Shown here: positions 1 through 37,239 of the stretch, in pieces
Layout: each line of letters opens with the position of its first letter
Numbering within the stretch: position 1 is the stretch's first letter
Assembly (NCBI RefSeq): GCF_024502345.1
Contig: NZ_JALDNN010000001.1
Reading direction: 5' to 3' (one strand)
Length of the DNA: 64,000 bases
Source of the DNA: Escherichia coli
Lineage (GTDB): Bacteria; Pseudomonadota; Gammaproteobacteria; Enterobacterales; Enterobacteriaceae
The notes under the pieces: generated by a model
Database searches by the model: none
What the model was told of the DNA's origin: nothing
Seen by the model: only the letters and a program-made list of their open reading frames with translations
Made by a program: the position numbers and the translations under genes

Positions 1-243
1 ATCAGGCTGTCGTTATTGTCATGGAAAGTGGAACGATAGTAGTGGCATCAGTGTCGCTACGCAAAGCATTCGACATCAATCGGAATCCTCTGTGTCAGGT
101 CTTGCCACTGCTTCAAACTTTTACGCCCGTCAAATTGCCCGTTGCATGGCAATTTGGCGCAAAATACTATCTACTGACAAAAAAGATCGCATTAAGTTCG
201 CCGTTCATCGTCACTTATGTGACATAACCGATAAGTAAAGGCC

Positions 244-1545
244 ATGGCTCAGGAAATCGAATTAAAGTTTATTGTTAATCACAGTGCCGTTGAGGCGTTG
301 CGTGACCATCTCAATACGCTGGGCGGCGAGCACCATGACCCCGTGCAGTTGCTGAATATTTACTACGAAACGCCGGATAACTGGCTGCGTGGGCACGATA
401 TGGGCTTACGTATTCGTGGCGAAAACGGTCGCTATGAGATGACCATGAAAGTTGCAGGAAGAGTGACAGGCGGCTTACACCAGCGCCCGGAATATAACGT
501 GGCGTTGAGCGAACCGACGCTCGACCTGGCGCAGTTTCCCTCGGAAGTCTGGCCGAACGGCGAATTGCCTGCCGATCTCGCTTCCCGCGTACAACCGCTG
601 TTCTGCACCGATTTTTATCGCGAAAAATGGCTGGTGGCGGTCGATGGCAGCCGAATTGAAATCGCTCTCGATCAGGGTGAGGTGAAAGCGGGGGAATTTG
701 CTGAACCTATCTGTGAGCTGGAACTGGAGCTGCTTAGCGGCGACACGCGCGCGGTGCTGAAACTGGCGAACCAACTGGTATCGCAAATCGGATTACGCCA
801 GGGCAGCCTGAGCAAAGCGGCGCGTGGCTATCATCTGGCGCAGGGCAATCCGGCGCGTGAAATCAAACCGACCACCATTTTGCATGTTGCGGCAAAAGCC
901 GATGTGGAACAGGGGCTGGAAGCGGCGCTCGAGCTGGCGTTAGCGCAATGGCAGTATCATGAAGAACTGTGGGTACGCGGCAACGATGCGGCGAAAGAAC
1001 AGGTGCTGGCAGCCATTAGCCTGGTCCGTCATACGCTGATGCTGTTCGGTGGTATTGTGCCGCGTAAAGCGAGCACTCACTTACGTGATCTGCTGACTCA
1101 ATGCGAGGCGACCATTGCTTCTGCGGTTTCTGCCGTGACGGCGGTCTACTCTACCGAAACGGCAATGGCGAAGCTGGCGTTGACCGAATGGTTGGTAAGC
1201 AAAGCATGGCAGCCATTTTTAGATGCCAAAGCGCAGGGCAAAATCAGCGACTCCTTCAAACGCTTTGCCGATATCCATCTTTCCCGCCATGCCGCTGAAC
1301 TGAAAAGCGTTTTCTGCCAGCCGTTAGGCGATCGCTACCGTGACCAGTTGCCACGCCTGACGCGTGATATTGACTCAATACTGTTGCTGGCGGGTTACTA
1401 TGATCCTGTCGTCGCGCAAGCCTGGCTGGAGAACTGGCAGGGGCTGCATCACGCTATTGCGACCGGGCAACGCATCGAAATTGAACATTTCCGTAATGAG
1501 GCAAACAATCAGGAACCGTTCTGGTTGCACAGCGGAAAACGTTAA
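244..1545 (+). CDS. ygiF: Inorganic triphosphatase (CYTH domain), 433 aa
   Basis: ATG-initiated 433-aa ORF; recognised protein sequence and position directly upstream of glnE. Confidence 0.9.
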
Positions 1546-4455: not shown

Positions 4456-5889
4456 ATGAAAGTAACGCTGCCAGAGTTTGAACGTGCAGGAGTGATGGTG
4501 GTTGGTGATGTGATGCTGGATCGTTACTGGTACGGCCCCACCAGTCGTATCTCGCCGGAAGCGCCGGTGCCCGTGGTTAAAGTGAATACCATCGAAGAAC
4601 GTCCGGGCGGCGCGGCTAACGTGGCGATGAATATCGCTTCTCTCGGTGCTAATGCACGCCTGGTCGGGTTGACGGGCATTGACGATGCAGCGCGCGCGCT
4701 GAGTAAATCTCTGGCCGACGTCAACGTCAAATGCGACTTCGTTTCTGTACCGACGCATCCTACCATTACCAAATTACGGGTACTTTCCCGCAACCAACAG
4801 CTGATCCGTCTGGATTTTGAAGAAGGTTTCGAAGGTGTTGATCCGCAGCCGCTGCACGAGCGGATTAATCAGGCGCTGAGTTCGATTGGCGCGCTGGTGC
4901 TTTCTGACTACGCCAAAGGTGCGCTGGCAAGCGTACAGCAGATGATCCAACTGGCGCGTAAAGCGGGCGTTCCGGTGCTGATTGATCCAAAAGGTACCGA
5001 TTTTGAGCGCTACCGCGGCGCTACGCTGTTAACGCCGAATCTCTCGGAATTTGAAGCTGTTGTCGGTAAATGTAAGACCGAAGAAGAGATTGTTGAGCGC
5101 GGCATGAAACTGATTGCCGATTACGAACTCTCGGCTCTGTTAGTGACCCGTTCCGAACAGGGTATGTCGCTGCTGCAACCGGGTAAAGCGCCGCTGCATA
5201 TGCCAACCCAGGCGCAGGAAGTGTATGACGTTACCGGTGCGGGCGACACGGTGATTGGCGTCCTGGCGGCAACGCTGGCAGCGGGTAATTCGCTGGAAGA
5301 AGCCTGCTTCTTTGCCAATGCGGCGGCTGGTGTGGTGGTCGGCAAACTGGGGACGTCCACGGTTTCGCCGATCGAGCTGGAAAACGCTGTACGTGGACGC
5401 GCAGATACCGGCTTTGGCGTGATGACCGAAGAGGAACTGAAGCTGGCCGTAGCGGCAGCGCGTAAACGTGGTGAAAAAGTGGTAATGACCAACGGTGTCT
5501 TCGATATCCTACATGCCGGGCACGTCTCTTATCTGGCAAATGCCCGCAAGCTGGGTGACCGCTTGATTGTTGCCGTCAACAGCGATGCCTCCACCAAACG
5601 GCTGAAAGGGGATTCCCGCCCGGTAAACCCACTCGAACAGCGTATGATTGTGCTGGGCGCACTGGAAGCGGTCGACTGGGTAGTGTCGTTTGAAGAAGAT
5701 ACGCCGCAGCGCCTGATCGCCGGGATCCTGCCAGATCTGCTGGTGAAAGGTGGCGACTATAAACCAGAAGAGATTGCCGGGAGTAAAGAAGTCTGGGCCA
5801 ACGGCGGCGAAGTGCTGGTGCTCAACTTCGAAGACGGTTGCTCGACCACTAACATTATCAAGAAGATCCAACAGGATAAAAAAGGCTAA
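4456..5889 (+). CDS. hldE: Bifunctional D-beta-D-heptose 7-phosphate kinase / heptose 1-phosphate adenylyltransferase, 477 aa
   Basis: 477-aa ORF with SD AGGAGA upstream; recognised RfaE/HldE sequence; conserved position after glnE. Confidence 0.93.
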
Positions 5890-5969
5890 CCGGAAAGCGG
5901 GTCACAGATCTCGCTTCGTACCTAGCAGGCCTATTGACGCTGTTGCTTTTTCAACCTAGAGTAAAGGAA

Positions 5970-6112
5970 CAAGGGTAAGGGAGGATTTCTCCCCCCTCTG
6001 ATGAGTTGTTAGTAAGTCGGGAAACTTAACAGTAACAACACAACCAGTATGATGACGAGCTTCATCATAACCCTTTCCTTCTATAAGGCCCCTTCCTCGG
6101 GAGGGGCTTTCC
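5970..6112 (+). ncRNA. sibD: Sib-family antisense sRNA antitoxin (SibD/E-like), copy 1; ends approximate
   Basis: Putative promoter TTGACG-17bp-TAGAGT at 5934-5962; fully overlaps the antisense ibs ORF; 3' hairpin GCCCCUU...GAGGGGC + UUUCCCGUUUC at 6088-6118; ~143 nt fits known Sib length; D/E naming tentative. Confidence 0.6.
6009..6068 (-). CDS. ibsD: Ibs-family type I toxin, 19-aa hydrophobic peptide MMKLVIILVVLLLLSFPTY
   Basis: 60-nt minus-strand ORF translated by hand; close match to the Ibs toxin family (cf. IbsC MMRLVIILIVLLLISFSAY); D/E naming tentative. Confidence 0.65.
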   Translation of the reverse strand: MMKLVIILVVLLLLSFPTY

Positions 6113-6345
6113 CGTTTCAGCCCCTTGCTGACTCCCCGATTGTTGATGAGCGCCGGACCCCGCGCAACGCTTTCCCTGAAGCAGTTTTGCCTTCCCCGAG
6201 CGGTCACGCAAAACGCTGCAACGTCCTGAGCATTTGCACCTTTTAGCGGAACGCAGATATAAAAAATCCCCGGCTTTTTGGGCCAGGGATATGTGTTAAT
6301 GAAACCTTCTTGACGCTGATTTTTTTTCAACCTAAAGTAAAGGAA

Positions 6346-6488
6346 CAAGGGTAAGGGAGGATTTCTCCCCCCTCTGATTGGCTGTTAATAAGCTGCGAAA
6401 CTTACGAGTAACAACACAATCAGTATGATGACGAGCTTCATCATAACCCTTTCCTTATACAAGGCCCCTTCTTCGGGAGGGGCTTTCC
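6346..6488 (+). ncRNA. sibE: Sib-family antisense sRNA antitoxin (SibD/E-like), copy 2; ends approximate
   Basis: Promoter TTGACG-17bp-TAAAGT at 6310-6338; overlaps second ibs ORF; same 3' hairpin as copy 1. Confidence 0.6.
6385..6444 (-). CDS. ibsE: Ibs-family type I toxin, 19-aa peptide MMKLVIILIVLLLVSFAAY
   Basis: 60-nt minus-strand ORF in second repeat unit; differs from copy 1 at 4 residues. Confidence 0.65.
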   Translation of the reverse strand: MMKLVIILIVLLLVSFAAY

Positions 6489-6633
6489 CGTTTCAGCCCC
6501 TTGCTGACTCCCCGATTGTTGATGAGCGCCGGACCCCGCGCAACGCTTTCCCTGAGGTAGTTTTGCCTTCCCCGAGCGGTCACGCAAAATGCTGCAACAG
6601 CCCGATCATTTGCACTTTTTATCGGAACGCAGA

Positions 6634-6666
6634 TATAAAAAATCCCCGGCTTTTTGGGCCAGGGAT
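6634..6666 (-). terminator. Rho-independent terminator downstream of yqiK (minus strand); a homologous copy lies at 6258-6290
   Basis: Minus-strand RNA AUCCCUGGC-CCAAAAA-GCCGGGGAU followed by UUUUUUAU; 9-bp stem with one G-U pair. Confidence 0.6.
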
Positions 6667-9000: not shown

Positions 9001-9268
9001 ATGTCACTCCAATGTCCATTTAGTGACGCAATATTCACTTTGGGATAGTTTCCTTGCTTACATTTATCTTTGTTAATAATAACACACGTTAGAGAAGTTC
9101 TGGAAGAGAAAGTCTTTTAATATGGTTTTTTATTTTTCACTAAAAAGTGTGATCGGGGACAATATATTTACGCACGTTATGTTTAAAGGCACTACACTGA
9201 TTGGGGAATACTGAAATCAGAAAAAGCATATGGCCTTAAAAGGTATGCGATAACCGGAGGATGTGCTT

Positions 9269-9469
9269 ATGGATCATAGTCTTAATTCTTTAAATAATTT
9301 CGATTTCCTGGCGCGTAGTTTTGCCAGAATGCACGCAGAAGGTCGCCCGGTCGATATTCTGGCCGTTACTGGTAACATGGATGAAGAACATAGAACCTGG
9401 TTTTGCGCACGTTATGCCTGGTATTGCCAACAGATGATGCAAACCAGAGAACTTGAATTAGAACACTGA
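9269..9469 (+). CDS. glgS: Surface composition regulator GlgS, 66 aa
   Basis: Recognised sequence [28 protein letters not shown]...; track ORF starts 2 codons earlier (9263). Confidence 0.88.
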
Positions 9470-9474
9470 TATTA

Positions 9475-9497
9475 CGGGCCGTCTGGCCCGTTTTTGT
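9475..9497 (+). terminator. Terminator hairpin between convergent glgS and yqiC
   Basis: CGGGCC-GTCT-GGCCCG followed by TTTTTGTGTT on + strand. Confidence 0.6.
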
Positions 9498-9503
9498 GTT
9501 GCT

Positions 9504-9803
9504 TTATTCTGCTTTATCAATAGGCGGGATAGCCGGAGGAGATTGAAGATCTGCTACCGAATTATTGCGCGCCTCCAGTTCACTGATGCGCTGCTCCAGT
9601 AACGCCAGTTTTTCACGAGTCCGTAACAGGACTTGCGTCTGTACGTCGAATTCTTCGCGGCTCACCAGATCGAGACGCGTCAGCTGCGCTTGTAGGGTTT
9701 GGCGGATTTTTTTCTCCACATCTTCCCCGAACTCCCTGATTCCTTTAGGCATTGATTCGTGAACCTGGCGAGCGATTTGCTCAATTTTTTTCGGGTCAAT
9801 CAT
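9504..9803 (-). CDS. ubiK: Ubiquinone biosynthesis accessory factor UbiK (YqiC), ~99 aa
   Basis: Track ORF 9504..9863 trimmed to [16 protein letters not shown]... start; coiled-coil BMFP-type protein. Confidence 0.8.
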
Positions 9804-9925
9804 TGTAGTTTCCCTGTACTGATAGGTGTTGAGTGCCATTGTAGTGCGATAAGGGTAAGTCATAAACCAGAATTATGTGAAGCTATGCGTTGCTGCCGCT
9901 AATCATTAGCGTTATAGTGAATCCG

Positions 9926-10176
9926 CTTATTCTCAGGGCGGGGCGAAATTCCCCACCGGCGGTAAATCAACTCAGTTGAAAGCCCGCGAGCGCTTTGGGT
10001 GCGAACTCAAAGGACAGCAGATCCGGTGTAATTCCGGGGCCGACGGTTAGAGTCCGGATGGGAGAGAGTAACGATTCTGTCGGGCATGGACCCGCTCACG
10101 TTATTTTGGCTATATGCCGCCACTCCTAAGACTGCCCTGATTCTGGTAACCATAATTTTAGTGAGGTTTTTTTACC
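9926..10176 (+). promoter_or_regulatory. FMN riboswitch (RFN element) in the ribB 5' leader
   Basis: Conserved RFN core CAGGGCGGGGCGAAAUUCCCCACCGGCGGUAAA ... AUCCGGUGUAAUUCCGGGGCCGACGGUUAGAGUCCGGAUGGGAGAGAGUAACG; putative -10 TATAGT at 9913-9918. Confidence 0.88.
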
Positions 10177-10830
10177 ATGAATCAGACGCTACTTTCCTCT
10201 TTTGGTACGCCTTTCGAACGTGTTGAAAATGCACTGGCTGCGCTGCGTGAAGGACGCGGTGTAATGGTGCTTGATGATGAAGACCGTGAAAACGAAGGTG
10301 ATATGATCTTCCCGGCAGAAACCATGACCGTTGAGCAGATGGCGCTGACCATTCGCCACGGTAGCGGTATTGTTTGCCTGTGCATTACTGAAGATCGCCG
10401 TAAACAACTCGATCTGCCAATGATGGTAGAAAATAACACCAGCGCCTATGGCACCGGTTTTACCGTGACCATTGAAGCGGCTGAAGGTGTGACTACCGGT
10501 GTTTCTGCCGCTGACCGTATTACGACCGTTCGCGCAGCGATTGCCGATGGCGCAAAACCTTCTGATCTGAATCGCCCGGGCCACGTTTTCCCACTCCGCG
10601 CTCAGGCTGGTGGTGTACTGACGCGTGGCGGTCATACTGAAGCAACTATTGATCTAATGACGCTGGCAGGCTTTAAACCGGCTGGTGTGCTGTGTGAGCT
10701 GACTAATGACGATGGCACGATGGCGCGTGCACCAGAGTGCATTGAGTTTGCCAATAAACACAATATGGCACTCGTGACTATTGAAGACCTGGTGGCATAC
10801 CGTCAGGCACATGAGCGTAAAGCCAGCTGA
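10177..10830 (+). CDS. ribB: 3,4-dihydroxy-2-butanone 4-phosphate synthase, 217 aa
   Basis: 217-aa ORF; recognised sequence; follows FMN riboswitch. Confidence 0.93.
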
Positions 10831-10862
10831 AAACCGCTGCTTAATTTACTGCCTTAATCAAG

Positions 10863-10897
10863 AAACCGAAGTTGTAGCAGGCTTCGGTTTTTATTTT
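10863..10897 (+). terminator. ribB rho-independent terminator
   Basis: AACCGAAG...CTTCGGTT hairpin followed by TTTATTTTT. Confidence 0.6.
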
Positions 10898-11091
10898 TCC
10901 CTGCTATGCAAGATGTTAATTCCGCTTCTCTTTCTATGAGAAAATTTCATTAATATCAGGCATTCTTTTTCATTATGATCAAAATCATATAATTGTTCCG
11001 TTATTATGCGACCATATGAATATATCCGAAAAAGGATATGTGAAATTTATGCGCTAAATGTTTAGTATTGTTAAATATTAAGGGTAAAAGG

Positions 11092-11319: not shown

Positions 11320-12093
11320 TTAACCAATTCCCGCCGTTTGTAGCAGCACTAAACTGAATCCCATCACTGACATTCCACATAGTACGCCATAGCTGGGGTT
11401 ATTATTAGGGTCAATCTCTTTGGCGAGCGGCATTAATTCATCAACCGAGAGCGCCACCATAATTCCTGCAACCGCCGCCATGATTGCCGCCATGACCACC
11501 GGGGAAATCATGCTACCGAGGATTAACCACGCCAGCACACCACCAAGAATTTCTGCCAATCCAGAAATCCCCGCCCACAGAATTGCCGTGCGTTTAGAAC
11601 CCGTTGCTGCATAAACCGGGCCTGCAACCGCCAGACCTTCAGGAATATTGTGCAACGCGACGGCCAGTGCGATGCCAAATCCCAGCTCCAGGTTGCTGCT
11701 CGCCGTGACAAAGGTGGCAATCCCTTCCGGGAAGTTATGCAGACTGATGCCGAGAGTGAGCAGAATGGCTGTGCGCTTGATCGATTTTGGCAACGGCTGC
11801 ACCGATTTTTGCATTAAATCCTGCGGATGCGCATGTGGCAACATGCGGTCCAGGCCAAAATAGCCAAGCAGACCGAAGATAAACATTCCATAACCCAACA
11901 CAGGCGACATTCCTTCAGCTGCTAGTGCGGCAGGAAGCATTTCCATTAATGAGATGAGCAACATGATCCCCGCCGCAAATCCTAGCGAAAACGCCAGTAA
12001 GCGGTTCGAGGGTTTTTGCCCGAGAACGCCGAGAAACGCGCCAATAAACGTGGCTGCCCCCGCCAGTATGGTCAGAATGAGAGGTACTGACAT
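11320..12093 (-). CDS. zupT: Zinc transporter ZupT (ZIP family), 257 aa
   Basis: Track ORF 271 aa trimmed to [19 protein letters not shown]...; multi-TM ZIP protein. Confidence 0.9.
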
Positions 12094-12208
12094 CGACAAC
12101 TCCTTATAAATCTTCACCTTCAGGCAGATCGTCAAAATAACTGATGATCATCATCATTGTTATCCGGGTTCTTACTCCGCCGAACAAGCGTATTGTGAGG
12201 ATATCAAA

Positions 12209-13024
12209 ATGACACCTTTAGTTAAGGATATCATCATGTCTTCAACACGTATGCCAGCATTGTTTTTAGGTCACGGTAGTCCGATGAACGTGCTGGAAGA
12301 TAATTTGTATACCCGCAGCTGGCAGAAGTTGGGGATGACATTGCCACGCCCGCAAGCGATTGTGGTGGTTTCGGCTCATTGGTTTACCCGTGGAACAGGA
12401 GTGACCGCGATGGAGACGCCGCCCACGATTCATGACTTTGGTGGCTTCCCGCAGGTGCTGTACGATACGCATTATCCTGCTCCGGGTTCGCCTGCGCTGG
12501 CACAGCGTCTGGTTGAGCTGTTAGCGCCGGTCCCGGTGACGCTGGATAAAGAAGCCTGGGGCTTTGACCACGGTTCCTGGGGCGTGCTGATTAAGATGTA
12601 TCCTGACGCCGATATCCCGATGGTGCAGTTGAGTATCGATAGTAGCAAACCTGCCGCCTGGCATTTCGAAATGGGGCGAAAACTCGCGGCGCTGCGTGAT
12701 GAAGGAATAATGTTGGTCGCCAGCGGCAACGTGGTGCATAACCTGCGTACAGTGAAGTGGCACGGTGATAGTTCACCGTATCCGTGGGCGACGTCGTTTA
12801 ATGAGTATGTGAAAGCGAATCTGACGTGGCAAGGGCCAGTGGAACAACATCCTCTGGTGAATTACCTCGACCATGAAGGTGGCGCGTTATCGAACCCAAC
12901 GCCAGAGCACTATCTGCCGTTGTTGTATGTGTTAGGTGCGTGGGATGGGCAGGAGCCAATTACCATTCCGGTCGATGGTATAGAAATGGGCAGTTTAAGT
13001 ATGCTGTCGGTGCAGATAGGTTAA
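12209..13024 (+). CDS. ygiD: 4,5-DOPA dioxygenase extradiol-like protein (~262-271 aa)
   Basis: Recognised sequence; start may be 12209 or the internal Met at 12236. Confidence 0.85.
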   Translation: MTPLVKDIIMSSTRMPALFLGHGSPMNVLEDNLYTRSWQKLGMTLPRPQAIVVVSAHWFTRGTGVTAMETPPTIHDFGGFPQVLYDTHYPAPGSPALAQRLVELLAPVPVTLDKEAWGFDHGSWGVLIKMYPDADIPMVQLSIDSSKPAAWHFEMGRKLAALRDEGIMLVASGNVVHNLRTVKWHGDSSPYPWATSFNEYVKANLTWQGPVEQHPLVNYLDHEGGALSNPTPEHYLPLLYVLGAWDGQEPITIPVDGIEMGSLSMLSVQIG

Positions 13025-13029: not shown

Positions 13030-13053
13030 ACCGGATGGCGAATGCCATCCGGC
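13030..13053. terminator. Hairpin between convergent ygiD and ygiC
   Basis: CCGGATGGC-GAAT-GCCATCCGG. Confidence 0.55.
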
Positions 13054-13061
13054 ATCATTGA

Positions 13062-14222
13062 TTACTCAACAAAAATATGCGGATAAAACCGAGACATATC
13101 CTGGGTGATCAATGCACGGTCTTCACGAATGCCAATTCCGGCAGGTTGATCGTTCACCAGCCAGCTACCAATCAGCATATAGCTGTCGCCGAATTTCGGT
13201 AACGGGTGGAATTGCTGAACAATCATCCCTTCTTCGCCATACGGACCTTCCGCTGCTTCAATGGTTTTGCCGTTCTCAATGATCGACACGTTTGCGCCTT
13301 CACGGGAGAAGATCGGTTTAACCACATATTTTTCCATTTGCGGATGATCATCTTCCGCAAAATAAGCGGGCAGCAGGTTCGGGTGATTCGGGAACATCTC
13401 CCACAGTAGCGGTAGAAGTGCCTTGTTGGAGATAATGCTCTTCCACGCCGGTTCCAGCCAGCGTACGCCTGCATCCTCCAGCTTGGTGGAAAACATCTCA
13501 CGCAACATAAATTCCCACGGATACAGCTTGAACAGGTTGGAAATTACCTGATCCTGTAAATCCGTGAACTGACCTTTTTCACCTAACCCGATATCGTCAA
13601 TGTAGAGGAACTCGGTAGCGATTTCAGCTTCCGTCGCGCAGTCCTGCAAATACTGAATGGTTCCGCGATCTTCCACCGTGTCGCGACAGCAGGTGAGATG
13701 CAGCAACTGGAAGCCATACTGTTCACGCAGCTCAACGAAGCGATCGATCAGTTTTTCTTGCAGACTGTTAAACTGGTCGCTGCCCTCCGGCAAGTTACCG
13801 GCGTTAAGCTGATCTTCCAGCCAGATCCACTGAAAGAACGCCGCCTCGTATAGTGACGTTGGCGTATCGGCGTTATTTTCCAGAAGTTTAGGTTCGCCAG
13901 TGCCATCCCACGCCAGATCAAGACGCGAATAAAGCGATGGCTGGTGCGTCAGCCATGACTGGCGCACAAAACTCCAGGTGTGTTTTGGTATGCGGAATTT
14001 GGTCATCAGCTCATCGCTGGCGATCACTTTTTCCACCACTTTCAGGCACATCTGGTGCAGTTCGGCGGTGACTTCTTCCAGCTTTTCAACCTGGGCGAGG
14101 GTCAACTTGTAGTAAGCATCTTCACACCAGTACGGCTCGCCGTACATGGTGTGAAAATTGAAACCGTATTCGTGGGCTTTCTCACGCCAGTCCGGGCGCT
14201 CGGTAATACTGACTCTTTCCAT
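13062..14222 (-). CDS. ygiC: Glutathionylspermidine synthase-homolog (ATP-grasp) protein, 386 aa
   Basis: 386-aa ORF; recognised; paralogous to the Gss C-terminal synthetase domain also present in this window. Confidence 0.9.
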
Positions 14223-14227
14223 CGGTA

Positions 14228-14899
14228 TCAGCCACCCATTGAACGAGAAGAGGTACCGGTTGCGCTACGCTGCATAGTGCTTTGTTTGGCAACAGATTCA
14301 CCAAAACCGCCACGGGTAACGGTAGTGGTGGTCGCCGGTTTTGGTGCCATTGCCGTCTTCGGTACGGTCATGGTGCGGCCTGGCTGGGCTGCGCCATAGT
14401 TTTTACCCGTCGCGTCGGTATATTTACCGTAAGCCGGACTGGCTGGGTTTTTCGAGGAGAACAGCGGCTGCTGTGCAAATCCCGCGCCGCCGCCCATCAG
14501 ACGCCCCATCATGTAACCGGCCATCAGCGGCATCCAGAAACTCCCGCTGGATTGCTGAGCCTGCGCCTGGTTTTCTGGTGCCATGCCAGCCTGGGCTGGT
14601 GCTTGCTGGCACTGGCCTTCACCAAATTCAGCAACACAGTCTTCACGGGTGGCGTATTTCGGCGCAGTACGTTCGGCTTCTTTCAGCGCATTGTTGTACG
14701 CGGTGGTACATTCGGCGCTTTTGCCTGGGTTTGCAGCTGAACAGTCGTCAGCATTTTGATAGAGAGACACTGTTTCATCACTCTTTTCACAGCCAGCCAG
14801 CATAAAAACAGTGGCAACCGCGAGAGCGACTGGTGTCAGATGGCGTGCGCTCCAGTTTTTGCGGAACGATGCGTGGCGTATGGATTTTGTCCGTTTCAT
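14228..14899 (-). CDS. ygiB: DUF1190 family lipoprotein-like protein, 223 aa
   Basis: Track ORF trimmed to [10 protein letters not shown]... start; operon with ygiC. Confidence 0.85.
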
Positions 14900-15046
14900 T
14901 TTTGTCTTCCGGGACCAGTGGTAAATACCCATCAGAATAGAGGATGGCTGGTCGAAATTGAAGCGAGAAGGGGGAAGAATGCGGCAGATAACCCGTATCT
15001 TTACGTTGCCTTACGTTCAGACGGGGCCGAAGCCCCGTCGTCGTCA

Positions 15047-16528
15047 TCAGTTACGGAAAGGGTTATGACCGTTACTGGTGGTAGTGCGTGCGGATGTTTG
15101 CTGAACGACGGGGGCCGGGCTATCAGGCGCATAACCATCAGCAATAGCATTCTGTTCCGGCGTTTGCGGGGCAACGTTTTCCGGATTAGTGGAAACCGGT
15201 TTGCTCAGCGCATTGTTCAGTGCCAGCAGATCCTGCTCGTTCAACGTACCCAGGGCTGACTTAATATTCAGCTGATTAATCAGGTAGTTATAACGCGCAT
15301 TCGCCAGCTCTTGCTTGGCGTTGTACAGCGTGGTGGTCGCATCCAACACATCAACAATGGTACGCGTACCGACCGAGTAGCCCGCTTCCATCGCGTCTAA
15401 TGAGCTTTGAGCGGAAACTACGGCTTGTTTGTAGGCGTTAATACTACTGATAGAAGCATTAATGTTGTTGAAGGAGGAACGTACGGTTTGCACGACGCTA
15501 CGATGCGCGCTTTCCAGTTGCTCGCTGGCACCAACAAAGTTGTACTGTGCCTGTTTCACCTGCGAGTTAACCATTCCGCCCTGATAAATCGGCAGCGAGA
15601 AGCTCAGGCCAACTTTGTTCTGGCCCATATTGCTATCGTCATACTGGGTACCAGCGGCACCACGGGTTTTCGAACCGCTATAAGAGGTGTCAGAAATCCC
15701 GGTAGAAGCCGTTAAATCCAGAGTCGGTAAGTGACCATCCTGCGCCTGGCGAATTTGCTCGCGCGCCAGGTCCTGGCTCAAGCGTGCCTGTAACAGCGAC
15801 AGGTTGCGTTTTTCGGCTTCTTTCAGCAGCGCGTTAACCGGCTGTGGTTTGTCGGTTTTAAAGTTTTCGACATTCAGCGCCGCCAGTTCCGGATAGTAGT
15901 TACCGGTGATCTGGCGCAGCTGCTCTACCGCGTTATCAAGGTTATTACGTGCGGTCACTTCGTTCGCCAGCACGGTATCGTACTGCGCGCGGGCGTTCTG
16001 CACGTCGGTGATCGCTACCAGGCCCACGTTAAAACGTTGGGTGGTTTGATCTAATTGACGGTAGATCGCTTCTTTTTGCGCCTGTGTATAGGAAAGAACG
16101 TCAATAGCATTCAACACGTTGAAATAAGCGGTCGCGGTGTTGAGGATCAAGGTTTGCTGATCGGTCTGATACGTGACGTCCTGAATCCCTGCTGCTTTTT
16201 CCTGCAGCGTTAACGCACGCCATTTCGACATATCAAAAATGGATTGAGTTAACTGCAGGGACGCACTGGTCGCGTTAGAGTTGATGCCGTTCGCGTCGCG
16301 GTAGCCGTTGCTATAGGTGTAATCTGCACCTAAACCTAGCTGTGGCAGTAATGGACTGCGCGCTTCATTAATTTTTTCAAAGGCAGCATCACGATCGGCG
16401 GCAGACTTACGCAATTCCGGGTTACTAAGGCGTGCTTGCTGATAAACTTGCATCAGGTTCTCGGCCTGGCTCAACGAACTGAACCCAGAAAGGCTCAGGC
16501 CGATAAGAATGGGGAGCAATTTCTTCAT
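15047..16528 (-). CDS. tolC: Outer membrane efflux channel TolC, 493-aa precursor
   Basis: Recognised sequence incl. signal peptide MKKLLPILIGLSLSGFSSLSQA; track ORF trimmed by 13 codons. Confidence 0.95.
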   Translation of the reverse strand: MKKLLPILIGLSLSGFSSLSQAENLMQVYQQARLSNPELRKSAADRDAAFEKINEARSPLLPQLGLGADYTYSNGYRDANGINSNATSASLQLTQSIFDMSKWRALTLQEKAAGIQDVTYQTDQQTLILNTATAYFNVLNAIDVLSYTQAQKEAIYRQLDQTTQRFNVGLVAITDVQNARAQYDTVLANEVTARNNLDNAVEQLRQITGNYYPELAALNVENFKTDKPQPVNALLKEAEKRNLSLLQARLSQDLAREQIRQAQDGHLPTLDLTASTGISDTSYSGSKTRGAAGTQYDDSNMGQNKVGLSFSLPIYQGGMVNSQVKQAQYNFVGASEQLESAHRSVVQTVRSSFNNINASISSINAYKQAVVSAQSSLDAMEAGYSVGTRTIVDVLDATTTLYNAKQELANARYNYLINQLNIKSALGTLNEQDLLALNNALSKPVSTNPENVAPQTPEQNAIADGYAPDSPAPVVQQTSARTTTSNGHNPFRN

Positions 16529-16732
16529 TTGCATTCCTTGTGGTGAAGCAGTATTTAGCGCGATCAAACTGTAAAATTATTGCGGATTCTAGCAGAAGCC
16601 GCTACCGCAAAAGGTTGGCGTTACGTGCCATAGGGCGTTAATGTGCCTCAATTTAACACATGACTGCTCAAACGGCAGTCAAACGTCGCTGAAATTCACA
16701 TTTAATTCACTATTAGTGCCAGGACATTAACA

Positions 16733-17362
16733 ATGCTTAAGCCAGACAACCTGCCCGTTACATTTGGCAAAAACGATGTAGAAATTATTGCACGAGAAAC
16801 ACTTTATCGCGGCTTTTTTTCATTAGATCTTTATAGATTTCGTCATCGTCTATTCAACGGGCAAATGAGTCATGAGGTGCGGCGGGAAATTTTTGAGCGC
16901 GGTCACGCCGCAGTCTTGCTACCCTTTGACCCAGTGCGTGATGAAGTTGTGCTGATTGAGCAGATTCGGATTGCCGCATACGACACCAGTGAAACCCCCT
17001 GGCTACTGGAGATGGTTGCCGGGATGATTGAAGAGGGTGAAAGTGTGGAAGATGTTGCCCGTCGCGAAGCGATTGAAGAGGCGGGACTGATAGTCAAACG
17101 GACCAAACCGGTGTTAAGTTTCCTGGCAAGCCCAGGGGGCACCAGTGAGCGTTCGTCAATTATGGTGGGCGAAGTGGACGCCACGACCGCAAGCGGTATT
17201 CATGGTCTGGCTGATGAAAACGAAGATATTCGCGTTCATGTGGTAAGCCGGGAACAGGCATACCAGTGGGTAGAAGAGGGGAAAATCGACAACGCAGCGT
17301 CGGTCATCGCTTTGCAATGGCTGCAGCTGCATCATCAAGCGTTAAAAAATGAGTGGGCATAA
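16733..17362 (+). CDS. nudF: ADP-ribose pyrophosphatase (Nudix), 209 aa
   Basis: 209-aa ORF; Nudix box; divergent from tolC. Confidence 0.92.
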
Positions 17363-17785
17363 ATGAAGCGTTACACACCTGACTTTCCTGAAATGATGCG
17401 CCTGTGCGAGATGAACTTTTCACAATTGCGCCGTTTGTTACCGCGCAATGACGCACCCGGCGAAACTGTAAGCTATCAGGTGGCAAACGCACAATATCGG
17501 CTGACGATTGTGGAATCGACCCGATACACTACCCTGGTGACAATAGAACAGACTGCGCCCGCGATCAGTTACTGGAGCCTTCCGTCAATGACGGTGCGTC
17601 TGTATCATGACGCGATGGTGGCTGAAGTGTGTTCAAGCCAGCAGATTTTTCGCTTCAAAGCGCGGTATGATTATCCTAATAAAAAGTTGCATCAACGCGA
17701 CGAAAAGCATCAAATTAACCAGTTTTTAGCGGACTGGTTGCGATACTGTTTAGCACATGGAGCGATGGCGATTCCGGTTTACTAG
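17363..17785 (+). CDS. yqiB: DUF1249 protein, 140 aa
   Basis: Starts immediately after nudF stop (TAAATG); conserved operon nudF-yqiB-cpdA-yqiA. Confidence 0.88.
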
Positions 17786-17809
17786 CGTCGTGAAACCTAA
17801 GGACACCAT

Positions 17810-18637
17810 TTGGAAAGCCTGTTAACCCTTCCTCTGGCTGGTGAGGCCAGAGTCAGGATTTTACAAATTACCGATACTCACCTGTTTGCACAAAAGCACG
17901 AAGCCCTGTTAGGGGTAAACACCTGGGAAAGCTACCAGGCGGTGCTGGAGGCGATTCGTCCACACCAGCACGAATTCGACCTGATTGTCGCGACAGGTGA
18001 TTTAGCGCAGGATCAATCCTCTGCGGCCTATCAGCATTTCGCTGAAGGCATCGCAAGTTTTCGTGCGCCCTGCGTCTGGCTGCCGGGCAACCACGATTTC
18101 CAGCCCGCGATGTACAGCGCGTTACAGGATGCGGGTATCTCCCCGGCGAAGCGCGTGTTTATTGGTGAGCAATGGCAAATCCTGTTGCTGGATAGCCAGG
18201 TGTTTGGCGTGCCGCACGGTGAGCTGAGCGAGTTTCAGCTTGAGTGGCTGGAACGTAAACTGGCCGATGCGCCAGAGCGCCATACGTTGCTGCTGCTGCA
18301 TCATCATCCGCTACCTGCGGGTTGTAGTTGGCTTGATCAACACAGCCTGCGTAACGCGGGCGAACTGGATACCGTGCTGGCGAAGTTTCCGCACGTCAAA
18401 TACTTGCTGTGCGGTCATATTCATCAGGAGCTGGATCTCGACTGGAACGGTCGCCGCCTGCTGGCAACGCCGTCGACCTGTGTGCAGTTTAAGCCGCACT
18501 GTTCCAACTTTACGCTGGATACTATCGCGCCCGGCTGGCGTACTCTCGAGTTACATGCTGATGGCACGCTGACCACCGAGGTGCATCGCCTGGCGGACAC
18601 ACGTTTCCAACCTGATACCGCTTCAGAAGGCTACTGA
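17810..18637 (+). CDS. cpdA: 3',5'-cyclic AMP phosphodiesterase, 275 aa
   Basis: 275-aa ORF (track start codon is TTG); metallophosphatase motifs (GDL..D, GNHD, GH.H). Confidence 0.9.
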
Positions 18638-19218
18638 TGTCTACGCTTCTTTATTTACACGGTTTCAACAGCTCGCCGCGCTCTGCAAAAGCGAGCTTGT
18701 TAAAAAACTGGCTGGCGGAACATCACCCTGACGTTGAGATGATCATTCCGCAGTTGCCGCCGTATCCTTCCGACGCGGCAGAGCTGCTGGAATCCATTGT
18801 CCTGGAACATGGCGGCGATTCGCTGGGTATTGTCGGTTCGTCACTGGGGGGATATTACGCCACCTGGTTGTCACAATGTTTTATGCTGCCCGCAGTGGTG
18901 GTAAACCCGGCGGTGCGCCCGTTTGAACTGCTGACGGACTATCTCGGTCAGAACGAGAACCCCTACACCGGGCAGCAATATGTGCTAGAGTCACGCCATA
19001 TTTACGATCTCAAAGTCATGCAGATTGACCCGCTGGAAGCGCCGGATTTGATCTGGCTGCTGCAACAGACGGGAGATGAAGTGCTGGATTACCGCCAGGC
19101 GGTGGCGTACTACGCTTCCTGCCGCCAGACTGTCATAGAAGGCGGCAACCACGCATTCACGGGCTTCGAAGATTATTTCAACCCGATCGTCGATTTTCTT
19201 GGTCTGCACCATCTCTGA
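18637..19218 (+). CDS. yqiA: Esterase YqiA, 193 aa
   Basis: ATG overlaps cpdA stop (TGATG); recognised. Confidence 0.9.
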
Positions 19219-19243
19219 CGATCAACTCGAATTGCTAACTTAA

Positions 19244-21139
<1,896 letters not shown>

Positions 21140-21186
21140 AGTAAAGAACATTGCCCGGTCAGGATGGCCGGGCAAACAAGGCAGGT

Positions 21187-21501
21187 TTAAATCCCAGGTT
21201 GCAGGATGCGGATATTCATCTCCAGCACGTCGCCTTTTACGGCTTCGCTGTACGCCTTCATGTGCGGGGTTTGCAGATGCGCTTCAAGATGCGCGATGCT
21301 TTCCCACTGCTCAATCATCACGATAGAATCCGGTGCCATAGACTGGAAACTCACGCCAGCAGCGCAATCCACCATTGGCGCATAGCCGTGGCAACCTTCT
21401 TCTTTCAGTACGGTTGGAACGATTTTAGCAAACTGATCCAATACCGCCTGACGGTGATGTTGACCAGGACGAGTACGGATTTCTGCGATTACGGTAAGCA
21501 T
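21187..21501 (-). CDS. ygiN: Quinol monooxygenase (ABM domain), 104 aa
   Basis: 104-aa ORF adjacent to mdaB; recognised. Confidence 0.9.
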   Translation of the reverse strand: MLTVIAEIRTRPGQHHRQAVLDQFAKIVPTVLKEEGCHGYAPMVDCAAGVSFQSMAPDSIVMIEQWESIAHLEAHLQTPHMKAYSEAVKGDVLEMNIRILQPGI

Positions 21502-21531
21502 GGTTAACTCCTTCTAAAGCCTGAGCTCTAG

Positions 21532-22113
21532 TTAACCAAAAATTTCCACAAGATGCTTGCGATATTCTTCAGTATAGCGGGGAACATCAGGCATTTTTAT
21601 CACGTCATTAGCGATAAATGTCGGCAGCGGTTCCATGCCAAGGAATTGGTTTGCTTTATGGAACGGCAGATACACACCGTCGACGCCAACGCCGTGGAAG
21701 AATTGATCTTTTTCGGTGAAGGCTTCCATTGGTGCGTTCCAGGTCAGAGAAAGCATATATTTTTTGCCCTGTACCAGGCCGCCGGAACCGTATTTTTTTG
21801 ACGGATCTTTGCGGGTACGGCCATCGCTGGCATACAGCGTTCCATGACCTTCGGTGAATACATCATCAATATATTTTTTCACTGTCCACGGCGCGCCCAT
21901 CCACCAGCCTGGCATCTGCCAGATCACCACATCAGCCCAGAGAAAGTTTTGTACTTCCGCTTTGACATCGTAGTCGCTGTCGGCGCGAACGATGCGGACA
22001 TCATGCCCGAGGTCGCGCAGTGTGCCATCCGCGACTTCGGTCAGGGTGTCGTTCAGTTGACCATTGGAGTGGGCGAATTTTTTCGCGCCGTTGATAATCA
22101 GGATGTTGCTCAT
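21532..22113 (-). CDS. mdaB: NADPH:quinone oxidoreductase MdaB, 193 aa
   Basis: 193-aa ORF; recognised. Confidence 0.92.
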   Translation of the reverse strand: MSNILIINGAKKFAHSNGQLNDTLTEVADGTLRDLGHDVRIVRADSDYDVKAEVQNFLWADVVIWQMPGWWMGAPWTVKKYIDDVFTEGHGTLYASDGRTRKDPSKKYGSGGLVQGKKYMLSLTWNAPMEAFTEKDQFFHGVGVDGVYLPFHKANQFLGMEPLPTFIANDVIKMPDVPRYTEEYRKHLVEIFG

Positions 22114-22431
22114 TTTTTAACCTCAAGGTGAGACGTTTGCCGACTATAGTACGTCACAGAGCGGTACGGTGAAATTAGCAAAATGTGCAAAGTCTTTTGC
22201 GAATTTAGCAAAAGTCTGATCTTGCTCTGACTCACCGATGCAGGATAAATATTTTCTGAAAATGACAATACTGATAGCCATTCCTCATAATTCTTACTCG
22301 CACCGGAATAATTTACACGTTTGGTTCGGTTTTTTTTGGGATTGAAAATATGGCTTTGAATAAGTAAAAGATGAAAATATCAACGTGTCATGTTGATAAT
22401 TATAAATGGATTTTTATGAGCGTACTGATAT

Positions 22432-22764
22432 ATGTTAAAGCATAAAATTCAAACAATATTTGAAGCTCTGTTATACATAATGCTTACTTATTGGTTAATA
22501 GATGCTTTTTTTGCTTTCAATAAGTATGACTGGATGCTTGAGTCGGGAGACAATATTTGCAGTATACCTTCCGTTTCAGGCGAAGATCGTATATTGCAAG
22601 CAATGATTGCAGCATTTTTTCTTCTTACGCCACTTATTATTCTTATCTTAAGAAAACTCTTTATGCGGGAAATGTTCGAGTTTTGGGTATATGTATTCTC
22701 GCTCGGTATTTGTCTGGTTTGTGGTTGGTGGCTTTTTTGGGGACGGTTTATATTTTGCTATTAG
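22432..22764 (+). CDS. ygiZ: Inner membrane protein YgiZ, 110 aa
   Basis: 110-aa hydrophobic ORF, AT-rich; conserved position between mdaB and qseC. Confidence 0.8.
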   Translation: MLKHKIQTIFEALLYIMLTYWLIDAFFAFNKYDWMLESGDNICSIPSVSGEDRILQAMIAAFFLLTPLIILILRKLFMREMFEFWVYVFSLGICLVCGWWLFWGRFIFCY

Positions 22765-22809
22765 TAAAATCTATGAGAGTCGTTTTAACGGCTCTCATAG
22801 ACAGAGAAG

Positions 22810-24159
22810 TTACCAGCTTACCTTCGCCTCAAATCCATCTTGTTCCGCATTCCCAAACTCAACATTCATGCCATGCAATTTGGCGATTCGCTGGACAATC
22901 GATAGCCCAAGTCCACTGCCGGTAGCGGTTTGTCCGGGGGGGCGATAGAAGCGTTCGCCAATTCGCGCCAGAGCCTCTGGCGTCACACCGGGGCCGTTAT
23001 CCCTCACGATGAAATTATCAGCATTCAGCGTGACGTCTATCACGCTGCCCTGTGGACTGTAGCGCACGGCGTTATCCAGCAAATTTCGCACCAACAAACT
23101 TAGCAATAGCGGTTGTCCGGTGCGTTTGATGCCCTGGACATTGAGTGTCAGTCGCACGTCAATTTTCGCCTGCTGCGCTGTGTGGTAAATATCCATCACC
23201 GACGATTGCAGGAGATCTTCAAGCGGGATCTCCGCGACGTCCTGAAGGTTATCCAGTGAGTCCAGCCGCGATAGCATGAGCAGTTGATCAACCAGACGAG
23301 TAGCGCGATCGATCCCGGAATGTAATTGAAGCAGTGCTTTTTTCCGCGCCTGCGGATCATCGTCAGAGAGCTGCGCAACTTCGGTTTGCACTTTCAGCGC
23401 TGTTAACGGGCTACGTAGTTCGTGAGCTGCATCGGAGGTAAAGCGTCGTTCTCGAACCATCATCGCATGTGTGCGGGCGAACAGTTGATTTAGCGACTCA
23501 ACCAACGGACGCACTTCGCTGGGTACGCCAGTCGCGTTTAGTGGTTTTTCCGAGTCAGGGTCACGCATACGCAGCGCCAGCGCCAGTTTGTTCAGCGGCG
23601 CGAGTTCACGACCCAATAGTACCATCATGATGATTAACATAATCGGCAGTGCGACCAGCCACGGGATCAATTGCCCGGCAACAATCGCCAGCGCCATGTC
23701 TTCACGGTATTCCCATTCCTGACCAACAACGATGCGATATTTGCCATCAGGTGAGGTCATCCAGACAAAACGCCATTGATCTTTATCGCCCACCAGTTGC
23801 CCGTCAGCAAAACCTTCCCGTTGATAGCTATAAGGAATATCTTCTCCGTTATCGCCATCGTTAAGGACCATTCTGCCGTCGTGGGTAAAGATGGCAAAGG
23901 TCAGCGCATCGTCATCAACATGACCGTGTTTTAATTTATTTGGCGTCTGTGCCATGCGATCCGCCGCGTTGATTTCGTTGAGATCGAGCGTACTTAACCG
24001 CTTGGCAAACAGCATCAGTTGGGTGTCGAACAATTCATCGACGTTATCCGTTGTTTGTTTCCAGGCGACAAAGCTGGAAAGCAGCCAGGTCACCGAGGCC
24101 AGAATTAAAAAGATTAGTGTCAGCCTGACGCGCAGACTAAGACGTTGGGTAAATTTCAT
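22810..24159 (-). CDS. qseC: Sensor histidine kinase QseC, 449 aa
   Basis: Two TM segments, H-box ([12 protein letters not shown]), HATPase_c motifs; 4-bp overlap with qseB. Confidence 0.93.
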
Positions 24160-24815
24160 TTCTCACCTAATGTGTAGCCAATACCATGCACGGTACGAAT
24201 AAAATCACTACCGAGTTTGCGTCGCAGATGATGCACATGCACTTCAACGGCATTACTGGTGACCTCTTCGTCCCAGGTATACAGTTTCTCTTCAATCAGT
24301 TTGCGCGGCAGTACCCGACCAGCGTTACGCATCAGTAATTCCAGCAGGGCAAGTTCTTTTGGTTTCAGTGTTAAGGGTTCGCCAGCCAGCGTGGCGATAC
24401 GTTTGCCGGGGTCGAGCATTACGTTACCGTGGCGCAGTTCGTTGCTGGCCTGGCCGTTGGTTCGGCGCATCAGAGCTTCCAGCCTGGCGGCGACTTCTAT
24501 CAACGCAAAAGGTTTACACAGATAATCGTCAGCTCCCAGACGCAGCCCTTCTACACGTTCCGCCAGCGCATCGCGCGCGGTCAGGATCAGTACAGGCTCA
24601 CGCTGACCTTTTTCTCGCCATTCGCGCAAAATATCGCGACCATCCATGCCTGGTAAGGTTAAATCCAGGATCACCGCATCATAAGGTGCGCTATAAAGCG
24701 CCTCTTTTCCCTGACGACCTTGTGTAAACCAGTCGACGCTAAAACCCATTTTACTAAGGCCCGTTTTGATGCCGTCGCCAATCAGCATGTCATCTTCTAT
24801 CAGTAAAATTCGCAT
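24156..24815 (-). CDS. qseB: Response regulator QseB (OmpR family), 219 aa
   Basis: REC domain with DL..LPGMDG motif plus winged-helix C-terminus; recognised. Confidence 0.93.
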
Positions 24816-24966
24816 TTTTTCATCCCTGCGATAACCGTATTTGCTGCCAGTAAACCGTGTTGTAACGCGCTCTGTACAGCACTAAATTTTATTTTTTTCC
24901 CTTAAGAAGTTGTTAAGGACTATCTTGTTAAATGCTCGGAAACAGACATTAAAGGGAGTAATAAAC

Positions 24967-25359
24967 ATGAAAAAATTCGCAGCAGTAATCGCAGTAATGG
25001 CCCTGTGCAGCGCACCGGTGATGGCAGCAGAGCAGGGCGGTTTTTCTGGCCCATCGGCAACGCAAAGTCAGGCCGGAGGATTCCAGGGGCCGAACGGCAG
25101 CGTAACGACTGTAGAAAGCGCAAAATCCCTGCGTGACGACACCTGGGTAACCCTGCGCGGCAATATCGTTGAACGCATCTCTGACGATCTCTACGTGTTC
25201 AAAGATGCCAGCGGTACTATCAATGTTGATATCGATCACAAACGCTGGAACGGCGTGACGGTGACGCCGAAAGATACGGTTGAGATTCAGGGTGAAGTCG
25301 ATAAAGACTGGAATTCTGTTGAAATTGACGTCAAACAGATCCGCAAAGTAAATCCGTAA
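24967..25359 (+). CDS. ygiW: BOF/YgiW-family periplasmic OB-fold stress protein, 130 aa
   Basis: Track ORF trimmed to MKKFAAVIAVMALCSAPVMA signal peptide; divergent from qseBC. Confidence 0.88.
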   Translation: MKKFAAVIAVMALCSAPVMAAEQGGFSGPSATQSQAGGFQGPNGSVTTVESAKSLRDDTWVTLRGNIVERISDDLYVFKDASGTINVDIDHKRWNGVTVTPKDTVEIQGEVDKDWNSVEIDVKQIRKVNP

Positions 25360-25411
25360 TTGTTACCGCTCCCGGGACGCGTTCCCGGGAATAATTTCGC
25401 AGGGAGGCAAA

Positions 25412-25894
25412 ATGACAAACCTGACACTGGATGTAAACATTATCGATTTCCCATCAATCCCTGTGGCGATGTTGCCGCACCGCTGTAGCCCTGAGTTGCT
25501 CAACTACAGTGTGGCGAAATTTATCATGTGGCGTAAAGAGACGGGGCTTTCTCCTGTTAACCAAAGCCAGACTTTTGGCGTCGCCTGGGACGACCCTGCC
25601 ACCACCGCACCGGAAGCGTTTCGCTTTGATATCTGCGGCAGCGTTAGCGAACCGATTCCCGATAATCGTTATGGTGTGAGCAATGGTGAACTTACCGGTG
25701 GACGTTATGCCGTGGCCCGCCACGTTGGCGAGCTGGACGATATTTCACACACGATATGGGGCATTATTCGCCACTGGCTGCCTGCAAGCGGCGAGAAAAT
25801 GCGTAAAGCACCGATTCTGTTTCACTACACCAATCTTGCCGAAGGGGTGACAGAGCAGCGACTGGAAACGGATGTTTATGTGCCGTTGGCGTGA
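25412..25894 (+). CDS. ygiV: GyrI-like/AraC-effector-domain transcriptional regulator, 160 aa
   Basis: 160-aa ORF; recognised. Confidence 0.88.
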   Translation: MTNLTLDVNIIDFPSIPVAMLPHRCSPELLNYSVAKFIMWRKETGLSPVNQSQTFGVAWDDPATTAPEAFRFDICGSVSEPIPDNRYGVSNGELTGGRYAVARHVGELDDISHTIWGIIRHWLPASGEKMRKAPILFHYTNLAEGVTEQRLETDVYVPLA

Positions 25895-26439
25895 TGGGGA
25901 ATCTTTACCGGAGTGTGAGCCAAATCACTCGCGATAAGTTTGAGCGAACAATGCCACAGGCGTATTGTTGTTGGGCTTATAATTTCTCCGGTAAGGAATA
26001 CCATGTATACGCGAAATTTATTATCCGGTGCGCCGTAAGCCGTCTCGGGGGTATCCATGAGCAAGCCGCACTTATGGCAGGAGGCGCGGGGCACTGGTGG
26101 AGACACAGCTAAACTGGGCTGAACCGTATACTTACAGTCGACTACTTTGATGCTTTAGGCTTCCCTGGACTCGCATAACCTCAACTTCTCGAATCGCCCG
26201 GAGCGGACCCCCATGCCGAGTGGTGTGGCATGGGCGCAACCTTGTGCTGCCCTCTATGCCGATCAAGTCTACAGCAAAGAGTTGTATATCAAGGCACATT
26301 GATGCCTTTATCGCCGTCGGAGCACGTCCGGCGGCGCTATTCACGCTGATCTCCTGTGACTCGACGCGGCAGATAATGTAGTATCTCCGGCAATATTGCC
26401 CCTTTGAAGGCTGGCGAATAAGTTGAGGAATCAGAATTA

Positions 26440-31155: not shown

Positions 31156-31205
31156 TGGACCAATTCATCGCCCCACAAAGTGGTGGGGCGATACAAGGAT
31201 GAATC

Positions 31206-32642: not shown

Positions 32643-32675
32643 TTTAGTGTATGATGGTGTTTTTGAGGTGCTCCA

Positions 32676-33373: not shown

Positions 33374-33451
33374 GTTGGAGTCATTACCTGTACTCCCGCA
33401 AAATAGGTGCAGTTTGGCGCGGTTAAGGAATAAAAAATAAAGGACTAAGCC

Positions 33452-34862: not shown

Positions 34863-34977
34863 CCAACCGGGAGTTAAGTCATCCGCTGAAAACATCGCAT
34901 TAACTTTTCGATTTCTCTTTCGTTCCGGCTTATAATCCCCGGCCTTTGATTATTTTTTTATCATTTCTGGAAGCAAA

Positions 34978-37197: not shown

Positions 37198-37198
37198 A

Positions 37199-37238: not shown

Positions 37239-37239
37239 A

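Follow-up and report, generated by a model that had tools for sequence, protein, structure and literature searches.

An adjacent glgS–ubiK pair in Escherichia coli as the probable ancestral, unoccupied state of the K-12 Yqi-like fimbrial site

Two related fimbrial loci have been described in Escherichia coli, Yqi in phylogroup B2 and Yqi-like in phylogroups A, B1, D and E; the two occupy different sites and exclude one another (Wurpel et al. 2013, PMC3559732). The B2 cluster, also called ExPEC adhesin I (EA/I) or Ygi, is missing from K-12 and O157 (Antao et al. 2009, PMC2771359), and the copy in strain CFT073 was used in PMC8545135. The variable distribution of Yqi-type fimbriae is already published (Wurpel et al. 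2013), and the stretch described here shows an ordinary strain difference of this kind, being the non-carrier allele of the variably present, clade-associated K-12 Yqi-like locus. That survey (PMC3559732) deals with distribution by phylogroup and contains neither glgS nor yqiC, no junction inside ubiK and no diverged flanks. What our analysis adds to the published surveys is the junction inside ubiK, the chimeric C-terminus of K-12 UbiK, for which the support is good, and a footprint in the flanking genes that most likely reflects recombinational import.

In the window, by which we mean the whole 64-kb stretch of DNA analysed, sequence and open reading frame (ORF) list show glgS and ubiK (yqiC) lying tail to tail, as convergent genes with 34 bp between their stops (Table 1). 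The original prediction, made from the sequence, had described the convergent pair with a gap of about 35 bp; the positions 9469 and 9504 that it used are edges of the stop codons, the glgS stop being the TGA at 9467–9469 in the ORF list. The same annotation of both genes is found in the public genome of strain ECNB21-M121, which is 100% identical to the window at 9000–10200 and whose annotation was used for the shared part only. The absence of a fimbrial cluster between the two genes, also part of that prediction, was borne out by tblastn over the 64 kb. K-12 YgiL, YqiG, YqiH and YqiI gave no real match anywhere in the window (best E = 0.12), so that homologues of the Yqi-like operon proteins were not found, and none of the eight fimbrial proteins searched, from CFT073 and K-12 together, matched the window below E = 0.1. 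The spacer bears no scar of fimbrial sequence, and a search of it against Rfam returned no family, the nearest families being an FMN riboswitch (9925..10073) and two Sib RNAs. Tandem Sib antitoxin RNA/ibs toxin repeats (sibD/ibsD and sibE/ibsE) occupy 5934..6666, as they do in K-12, and their two copies are about 91–93% identical to one another.

Table 1 Features at and near the glgS–ubiK junction, in window coordinates.
Feature	Position	Strand	Description	Basis
glgS CDS	9269..9469	+	66 aa, cell-surface composition regulator GlgS	ORF list and annotated relative
Left allele-specific flank	9425..9500		glgS 3' end and hairpin; 13 mismatches to K-12 and O111:H8	
glgS–ubiK spacer	9470..9503		34 bp between stop codons; unoccupied Yqi-like island site	
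Hairpin ACGGGCC-GTCT-GGCCCGT	9474..9491	+	7-bp stem, 6 G-C pairs, 4-nt loop	Terminator scan, folding
Stretch without K-12 counterpart	9501..9573	-	73 bp: last 23 ubiK codons, stop and 3 bp of spacer	
ubiK (yqiC) CDS	9504..9803	-	99 aa from MIDPKK; stop codon 9504-9506	ORF list
Right allele-specific flank	9574..9683		ubiK codons 41-77; 15-16 mostly synonymous mismatches to K-12	
Unoccupied ribB-yqiD site	10829..10973			CFT073 annotation, alignment, outgroup tblastn map, population counts

The K-12 locus is arranged differently. Its order in MG1655 is yqiK, yqiJ, glgS, yqiI, yqiH, usher (yqiG), IS2, ygiL, ubiK, FMN riboswitch and ribB, in agreement with the predicted presence there of the ygiL-yqiG-yqiH-yqiI cluster and an IS2 copy between yqiC and glgS; in MG1655 the two genes are apart, with the cluster between them. 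Two blocks align, window 9200..9500 with K-12 locus 5062..5362 and window 9574..9900 with 12001..12327, which sets the junctions at 9500/9501 and 9573/9574. In place of the short window stretch between them, global and ungapped alignments agree on 6,638 bp in K-12, made up of yqiI-yqiH-yqiG-IS2-ygiL, a 283-bp AT-rich intergenic region and a different ubiK 3' end. The K-12 insert is therefore a replacement of the ubiK 3' end and no clean insertion into the spacer. A carrier of serotype O111:H8 has junctions identical to those of K-12, a K-12-type UbiK tail and an intact insert of 5,300 bp that lacks IS2, which makes the IS2 a later, K-12-specific event. The yqiH gene is frameshifted in O111:H8, and the usher gene is interrupted by IS2 in K-12. 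The island has a GC content of 41%, compared with 50–51% in its flanks.

The intergenic region between ubiK and ygiL in K-12 (K-12 locus 11657..11939; 283 bp, 23% GC) has features of its own. Within it, 31 bp (11774..11804) are 87% identical to sequence upstream of the CFT073 major-subunit gene. No terminator-like site was found in these 283 bp after K-12 ubiK, so that read-through from ubiK into the K-12 fimbrial operon is conceivable.

The sequence on either side of the insert is not uniformly similar between the two alleles. Mismatches between the window and K-12 number 13 in 9400–9499 and none in 9100–9399; on the other side, the right flank is 84.7% identical to K-12, with no mismatches in 9724–10223. 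The diverged flanks thus span about 75 and 110 bp at 15–18% divergence, and O111:H8 shows the same mismatch pattern beside the junctions as K-12. Over ubiK codons 41–77, the identity of K-12 is 84.7% with the window and 83.8% with E. albertii, and that of CFT073 with the window is 98.2%; over codons 1–40 the window, K-12 and CFT073 are identical.

Consequences of the replacement are visible in the protein. UbiK of the window (99 aa) and of K-12 (96 aa) are identical through residue 77 and then continue into different tails. The window tail contains the motif PAIPP(V/I)D, which is common to UbiK of E. albertii-like strains, E. fergusonii, Citrobacter, Salmonella, Enterobacter, Kosakonia, Leclercia and Phytobacter and is lacking from the K-12 tail. 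A K-12-like tail (...ENRST...ETLPPTL; ...ENRSTVTVVKDDQETLPPTL) was found in an enterobacterium about 77–83% identical to E. coli, represented by two short contigs from public runs. In these contigs (at 152..846 in one of them) ubiK, a 191-bp spacer and glgS come in succession, and the spacer retains the CGGGCC/GGCCCG hairpin and contains no fimbrial genes. The occurrence of this tail there marks the K-12 tail as a genuine alternative UbiK tail, and its presence beside glgS in another organism rules out that the K-12 tail is read-through into island DNA or insertion junk. It is well supported that the C-terminus of K-12 UbiK is chimeric, with residues 78–96 xenologous, and that the 99-aa UbiK of the window is the native E. 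coli form. Both tails abut the UbiJ-binding coiled coil of UbiK, which comprises residues 49–85 in a published model (PMC9499169).

Which of the two arrangements came first was addressed with an outgroup survey, in which one genome per species was taken by UbiK relatives and the neighbouring genes were mapped with tblastn. The survey comprised 80 species loci among the matches listed, with genomes of E. fergusonii, E. marmotae and E. ruysiae not among them. Adjacent and convergent ubiK and glgS were seen in E. albertii, a divergent Escherichia, nine Citrobacter and S. enterica subsp. arizonae, and also in Superficieibacter, Pseudocitrobacter, Raoultella and Klebsiella; a fimbrial cluster between the two genes was found in none of the 80 species loci listed. 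The spacer measures 28–34 bp in Escherichia, Citrobacter and Raoultella, and 72–73 bp in S. enterica arizonae and Pseudocitrobacter. Taken together, the outgroup adjacency, the hairpin in the spacer and the UbiK tail motif indicate that the window has the native, never-occupied site and that the K-12 state is derived. We therefore regard it as very probable that the window is the ancestral empty allele of a presence/absence polymorphism, and that carriers received the operon together with a foreign ubiK end by recombination.

It could instead be supposed that ygiL-yqiGHI was once present in the lineage of the window and was deleted, so that glgS and ubiK became neighbours only secondarily. Decay of fimbrial operons is frequent, as the IS2 in the K-12 usher gene and the yqiH frameshift of O111:H8 illustrate, and past about 110 bp the window is the same as K-12, which means that the two backgrounds are close. 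Such a deletion would, however, leave behind carrier-type flanks and a K-12-type UbiK tail, or a truncated ubiK, whereas in the window tail, spacer length and hairpin are all fully of the outgroup type, and the proximal flanks agree with CFT073 (98.2%). Restoration of an empty allele by recombination is conceivable but would amount to allele replacement, not deletion. We consider loss by deletion extremely unlikely, and continue with the window as the ancestral, empty state.

Because mismatches cluster beside the junctions, the flanks are diverged and the GC content of the island is low, the K-12 state is most likely the product of recombinational import from another enterobacterial lineage. 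On this model, the 5.3-kb, low-GC (41%) ygiL-yqiG-yqiH-yqiI operon would have entered between ubiK and glgS in one E. coli haplotype, bringing with it short, strongly diverged pieces of both genes. The route would be homologous recombination with an enterobacterial lineage that already had the operon between ubiK and glgS. The event would have swapped the last 23 codons of ubiK, so that UbiK of carriers has 96 aa and ends in a foreign tail. The crossovers may have fallen inside the 3' parts of glgS and ubiK, or longer foreign flanks may later have been trimmed to about 100 bp by recombination.

The K-12 allele has the presence/absence pattern, fixed junctions, deviant GC content and outgroup absence at the site that are expected of a genomic island. 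No integrase or tRNA is present in the annotation of the K-12 island, and its borders show no target duplication or direct repeats, the junction being a substitution of 73 bp by 5.3 kb; import by homologous recombination is for these reasons favoured over site-specific integration. E. coli O-antigen and capsule loci are replaced by homologous recombination in flanking core genes. The K-12 island resembles such loci in being a low-GC cassette bounded by short stretches of core gene that are far more diverged than their surroundings, and differs from them in having no mobility genes or direct repeats (its only IS is the later, K-12-specific IS2) and in that the imported flank alters the C-terminus of a housekeeping protein, UbiK. 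The search for a donor of the K-12 haplotype among the 80 species loci listed and the UbiK homologues yielded none; what it did yield was the distant enterobacterial contig described above, which has a K-12-like tail but lacks fimbrial genes.

An older origin for the two alleles has to be weighed at this point. The occupied and empty haplotypes could be an ancient Escherichia polymorphism, maybe trans-specific or selected via adhesion, with the flanks diverged by linkage. Recombination around an old indel would confine divergence to some 100 bp next to the junction and shuffle the sequence fully farther out, as is seen here, and the cluster itself falls into two deep allele classes, at least 99% and about 94.5% identical to K-12. 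Against this, the mostly synonymous divergence of about 15% is at least as large as the distance between E. coli and E. albertii over the same codons; E. albertii, E. fergusonii and the divergent Escherichia all have the empty-type tail, and the 41% GC of the island suggests a foreign origin. We think an ancient polymorphism unlikely, and recombinational import remains our preferred account of the K-12 haplotype.

The spacer between the two stops contains a GC-rich hairpin. The sequence quoted for it in the original prediction, CGGGCCGTCTGGCCCG, spans 9475..9490, and a closing A-T pair widens it by one position on each side (Table 1). The stem is GC-rich, exceeds the minimum of five pairs and closes a short loop, as is usual for an intrinsic terminator, and the hairpin lies 4 nt past the glgS stop and 12 nt past the ubiK stop. 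A T-run (9492..9501) lies directly 3' of it, where the glgS (+) strand reads TTTTTGTGTT, giving a U-tract on that strand. A 66-nt stretch around the hairpin had folding energies of -20.6 kcal/mol on the + strand and -17.7 kcal/mol on the - strand, with z-scores of -4.1 and -4.5, respectively, and 0 of 200 shuffles folded as well. A scan for the terminator consensus found a site on the + strand only; on the - strand, where none was found, the stem runs into TAATATCAGT, and the sequence of the ubiK strand after the stem, UAAUAUCA, is a poor U-tract.

The hairpin is also found outside E. coli. Its CGGGCC/GGCCCG core is present in 14 genomes of 5 genera, and the same stem lies between both stops in E. 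albertii, the divergent Escherichia, nine Citrobacter, S. enterica arizonae and Raoultella; this recurrence between both stop codons across genera makes the hairpin more than a chance palindrome. Its form across genera is CGGGCC-NNNN-GGCCCG, with an invariant stem and a freely variable loop, and the Pseudocitrobacter spacer is without it. Covariation support was sought among the genera examined and none was found, the alignment being uninformative in this respect because the stem does not vary. Citrobacter orthologues have TTTTT(T) on the ubiK strand, that is, a U-tract on the ubiK side. The K-12 insert leaves the hairpin on the glgS side, opposite the yqiI stop 42 bp away, so that it again lies between convergent stops.

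The original prediction held that both genes share one terminator hairpin. There is indeed a single hairpin, but a canonical U-tract exists for glgS only. Its layout suggests a Rho-independent terminator for glgS, and a role in terminating the opposing ubiK transcript is plausible as well. Efficient bidirectional terminators typically show A-tract/U-tract symmetry. Like these, the window has a single GC-rich hairpin at a conserved orthologous position between converging stops that are separated by 34 bp, and a T-run flanks the hairpin on one side; it differs in lacking a U-tract on both strands, the symmetry being poor in Escherichia and better in Citrobacter and Raoultella. If the hairpin were instead a conserved palindrome with some other function, for example binding a protein or only stabilising mRNA as a 3' stem, an invariant stem between genera without compensatory changes would equally result, as from sequence-specific recognition, and the U-tract does switch sides between Escherichia and Citrobacter. 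However, a GC-rich stem of 7–9 bp with a variable 4-nt loop, placed 5–12 nt past two stops and accompanied in every genome by a U-tract on one side or both, is the textbook layout of an intrinsic terminator, and in K-12 the hairpin is still with glgS, between convergent stops and facing yqiI. A role other than termination is in our judgement very unlikely, and we retain the terminator as the probable function.

A second fimbrial site lies close by, on the other side of the ribB–ubiK pair. In CFT073 (phylogroup B2) ubiK and glgS are likewise 34 bp apart, and the Yqi cluster (ExPEC adhesin I, Ygi) is located between yqiD and ribB, which rules out the glgS–ubiK site as the location of the B2 yqi (EA/I) cluster. 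The ribB–yqiD interval of the window measures 261 bp, the alignment to CFT073 opens a 5.5-kb gap there, and the window accordingly has no B2-type Yqi/EA-I operon at this position either. The B2 Yqi and K-12 Yqi-like clusters have the same gene order, belong to a homologous family and share a 2-kb neighbourhood; the CFT073 proteins are 59, 54, 48 and 38% identical to K-12 YgiL, YqiG, YqiH and YqiI, respectively, and the site used by the B2 cluster is also in use in Citrobacter, Enterobacter and Klebsiella. The K-12 cluster site is 1.3 kb away from the ribB–yqiD site. A Yqi-family operon downstream of ribB, in convergent orientation, was seen in CFT073 (locus 34127..39607), many Citrobacter, Enterobacter, Lelliottia, Klebsiella and Pseudocitrobacter, and of the two sites the one downstream of ribB is apparently that which the Yqi fimbrial family has occupied for longer. 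The yqiD flank of CFT073-type genomes is about 78% identical to that of other E. coli, with 990 records at 60–80% identity.

We then counted both sites in 5,426 complete E. coli genomes. A 1.2-kb stretch across the glgS–ubiK junction was contiguous in 2,066 of them (38%), including CFT073, SMS-3-5 and an O157:H7 strain; among the other genomes listed, the match to the junction query breaks at one common query position. The K-12 yqiI-yqiH-usher segment was present in 3,362/5,426 genomes (62%), at the two levels of identity to K-12 described above, and the contiguous and K-12-type-cluster classes are complementary. The ribB–yqiD interval was contiguous in 4,426 of the 5,426 genomes, and a CFT073-type cluster at ribB/yqiD was present in 994 (18%). 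About 1,070 genomes (20%) have neither cluster, the window belonging with these. The counts agree with the published surveys (PMC3559732, PMC2771359); compared with the phylogroup pattern given in PMC3559732, the O157:H7 strain and SMS-3-5 are non-carriers here. At a frequency of 2,066 in 5,426, the arrangement tells little about lineage beyond the fact that the strain is not a Yqi-like carrier.

Further accessory differences set the window apart from K-12, as the original prediction had proposed in calling its background non-K-12; the fimbrial cluster, mqsRA and an ftsP–ygiQ island all support this. The order in K-12 is ygiV-mqsR-mqsA-ygiS-parC, and the predicted absence of mqsRA was confirmed: window 25897..26260 is without mqsR and mqsA, and ygiS is missing too. 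What is left there is 123 bp (25902..26024) of the mqsA–ygiS spacer and the ygiS start, followed by 236 bp (26025..26260) without a K-12 counterpart, up to the region upstream of parC. The extra island predicted between ftsP and ygiQ is likewise present, as a 3.7-kb insert (31157..34902; GC 45%) missing from K-12, and the two genes are adjacent in K-12, M121 and the O-type references. The insert contains an IS1 (insA 32676..32951, insB 32870..33373) between two paralogous ORFs, one at 31206..32642 (478 aa) and the other at 33452..34453 and 34389..34862, which look like a single gene interrupted by a frameshift. These ORFs have N-terminal hydrophobic segments and weak ankyrin-repeat matches. 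Coverage of at least 80% of window 24000–36000 was found in only 13 of the 5,426 complete genomes.

A 7.3-kb island between parE and ygiN, which encodes a TonB-dependent siderophore receptor, an ABC transporter and an RpiR regulator, is absent from the window (21136..21186) and from K-12 and present in M121 (21136..28439) and CFT073 (13039..20231). Compared base by base with the window, M121 has this siderophore island and ygiS and lacks the ftsP–ygiQ insert. Identity of the window over the shared core is 97.1% with CFT073 and 98–99% with K-12, O111:H8 and M121, and the lower value for CFT073 makes a phylogroup other than B2 probable.

For the strain itself, the finding marks a non-carrier of one of roughly a dozen cryptic chaperone-usher operons of K-12. 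One extension of the import model, in which entry of the island by homologous recombination with a foreign ubiK 3' end also produced two UbiK tails that are possibly not functionally equivalent, is decidedly doubtful; if true, strains with the fimbrial operon would, by genetic linkage, also have a variant accessory factor of ubiquinone biosynthesis. To our knowledge, all biochemical studies of the Ubi metabolon have used the K-12 form of UbiK. Its last 19 residues differ from those of native E. coli and Salmonella UbiK, which calls for caution when results are transferred in either direction between K-12 UbiK and Salmonella YqiC. For the family as a whole, the compact glgS/ubiK layout, and not that of K-12, is the ancestral reference for Enterobacteriaceae, so that pan-genome and synteny tools that take K-12 as their anchor will call a 'deletion' where none exists.
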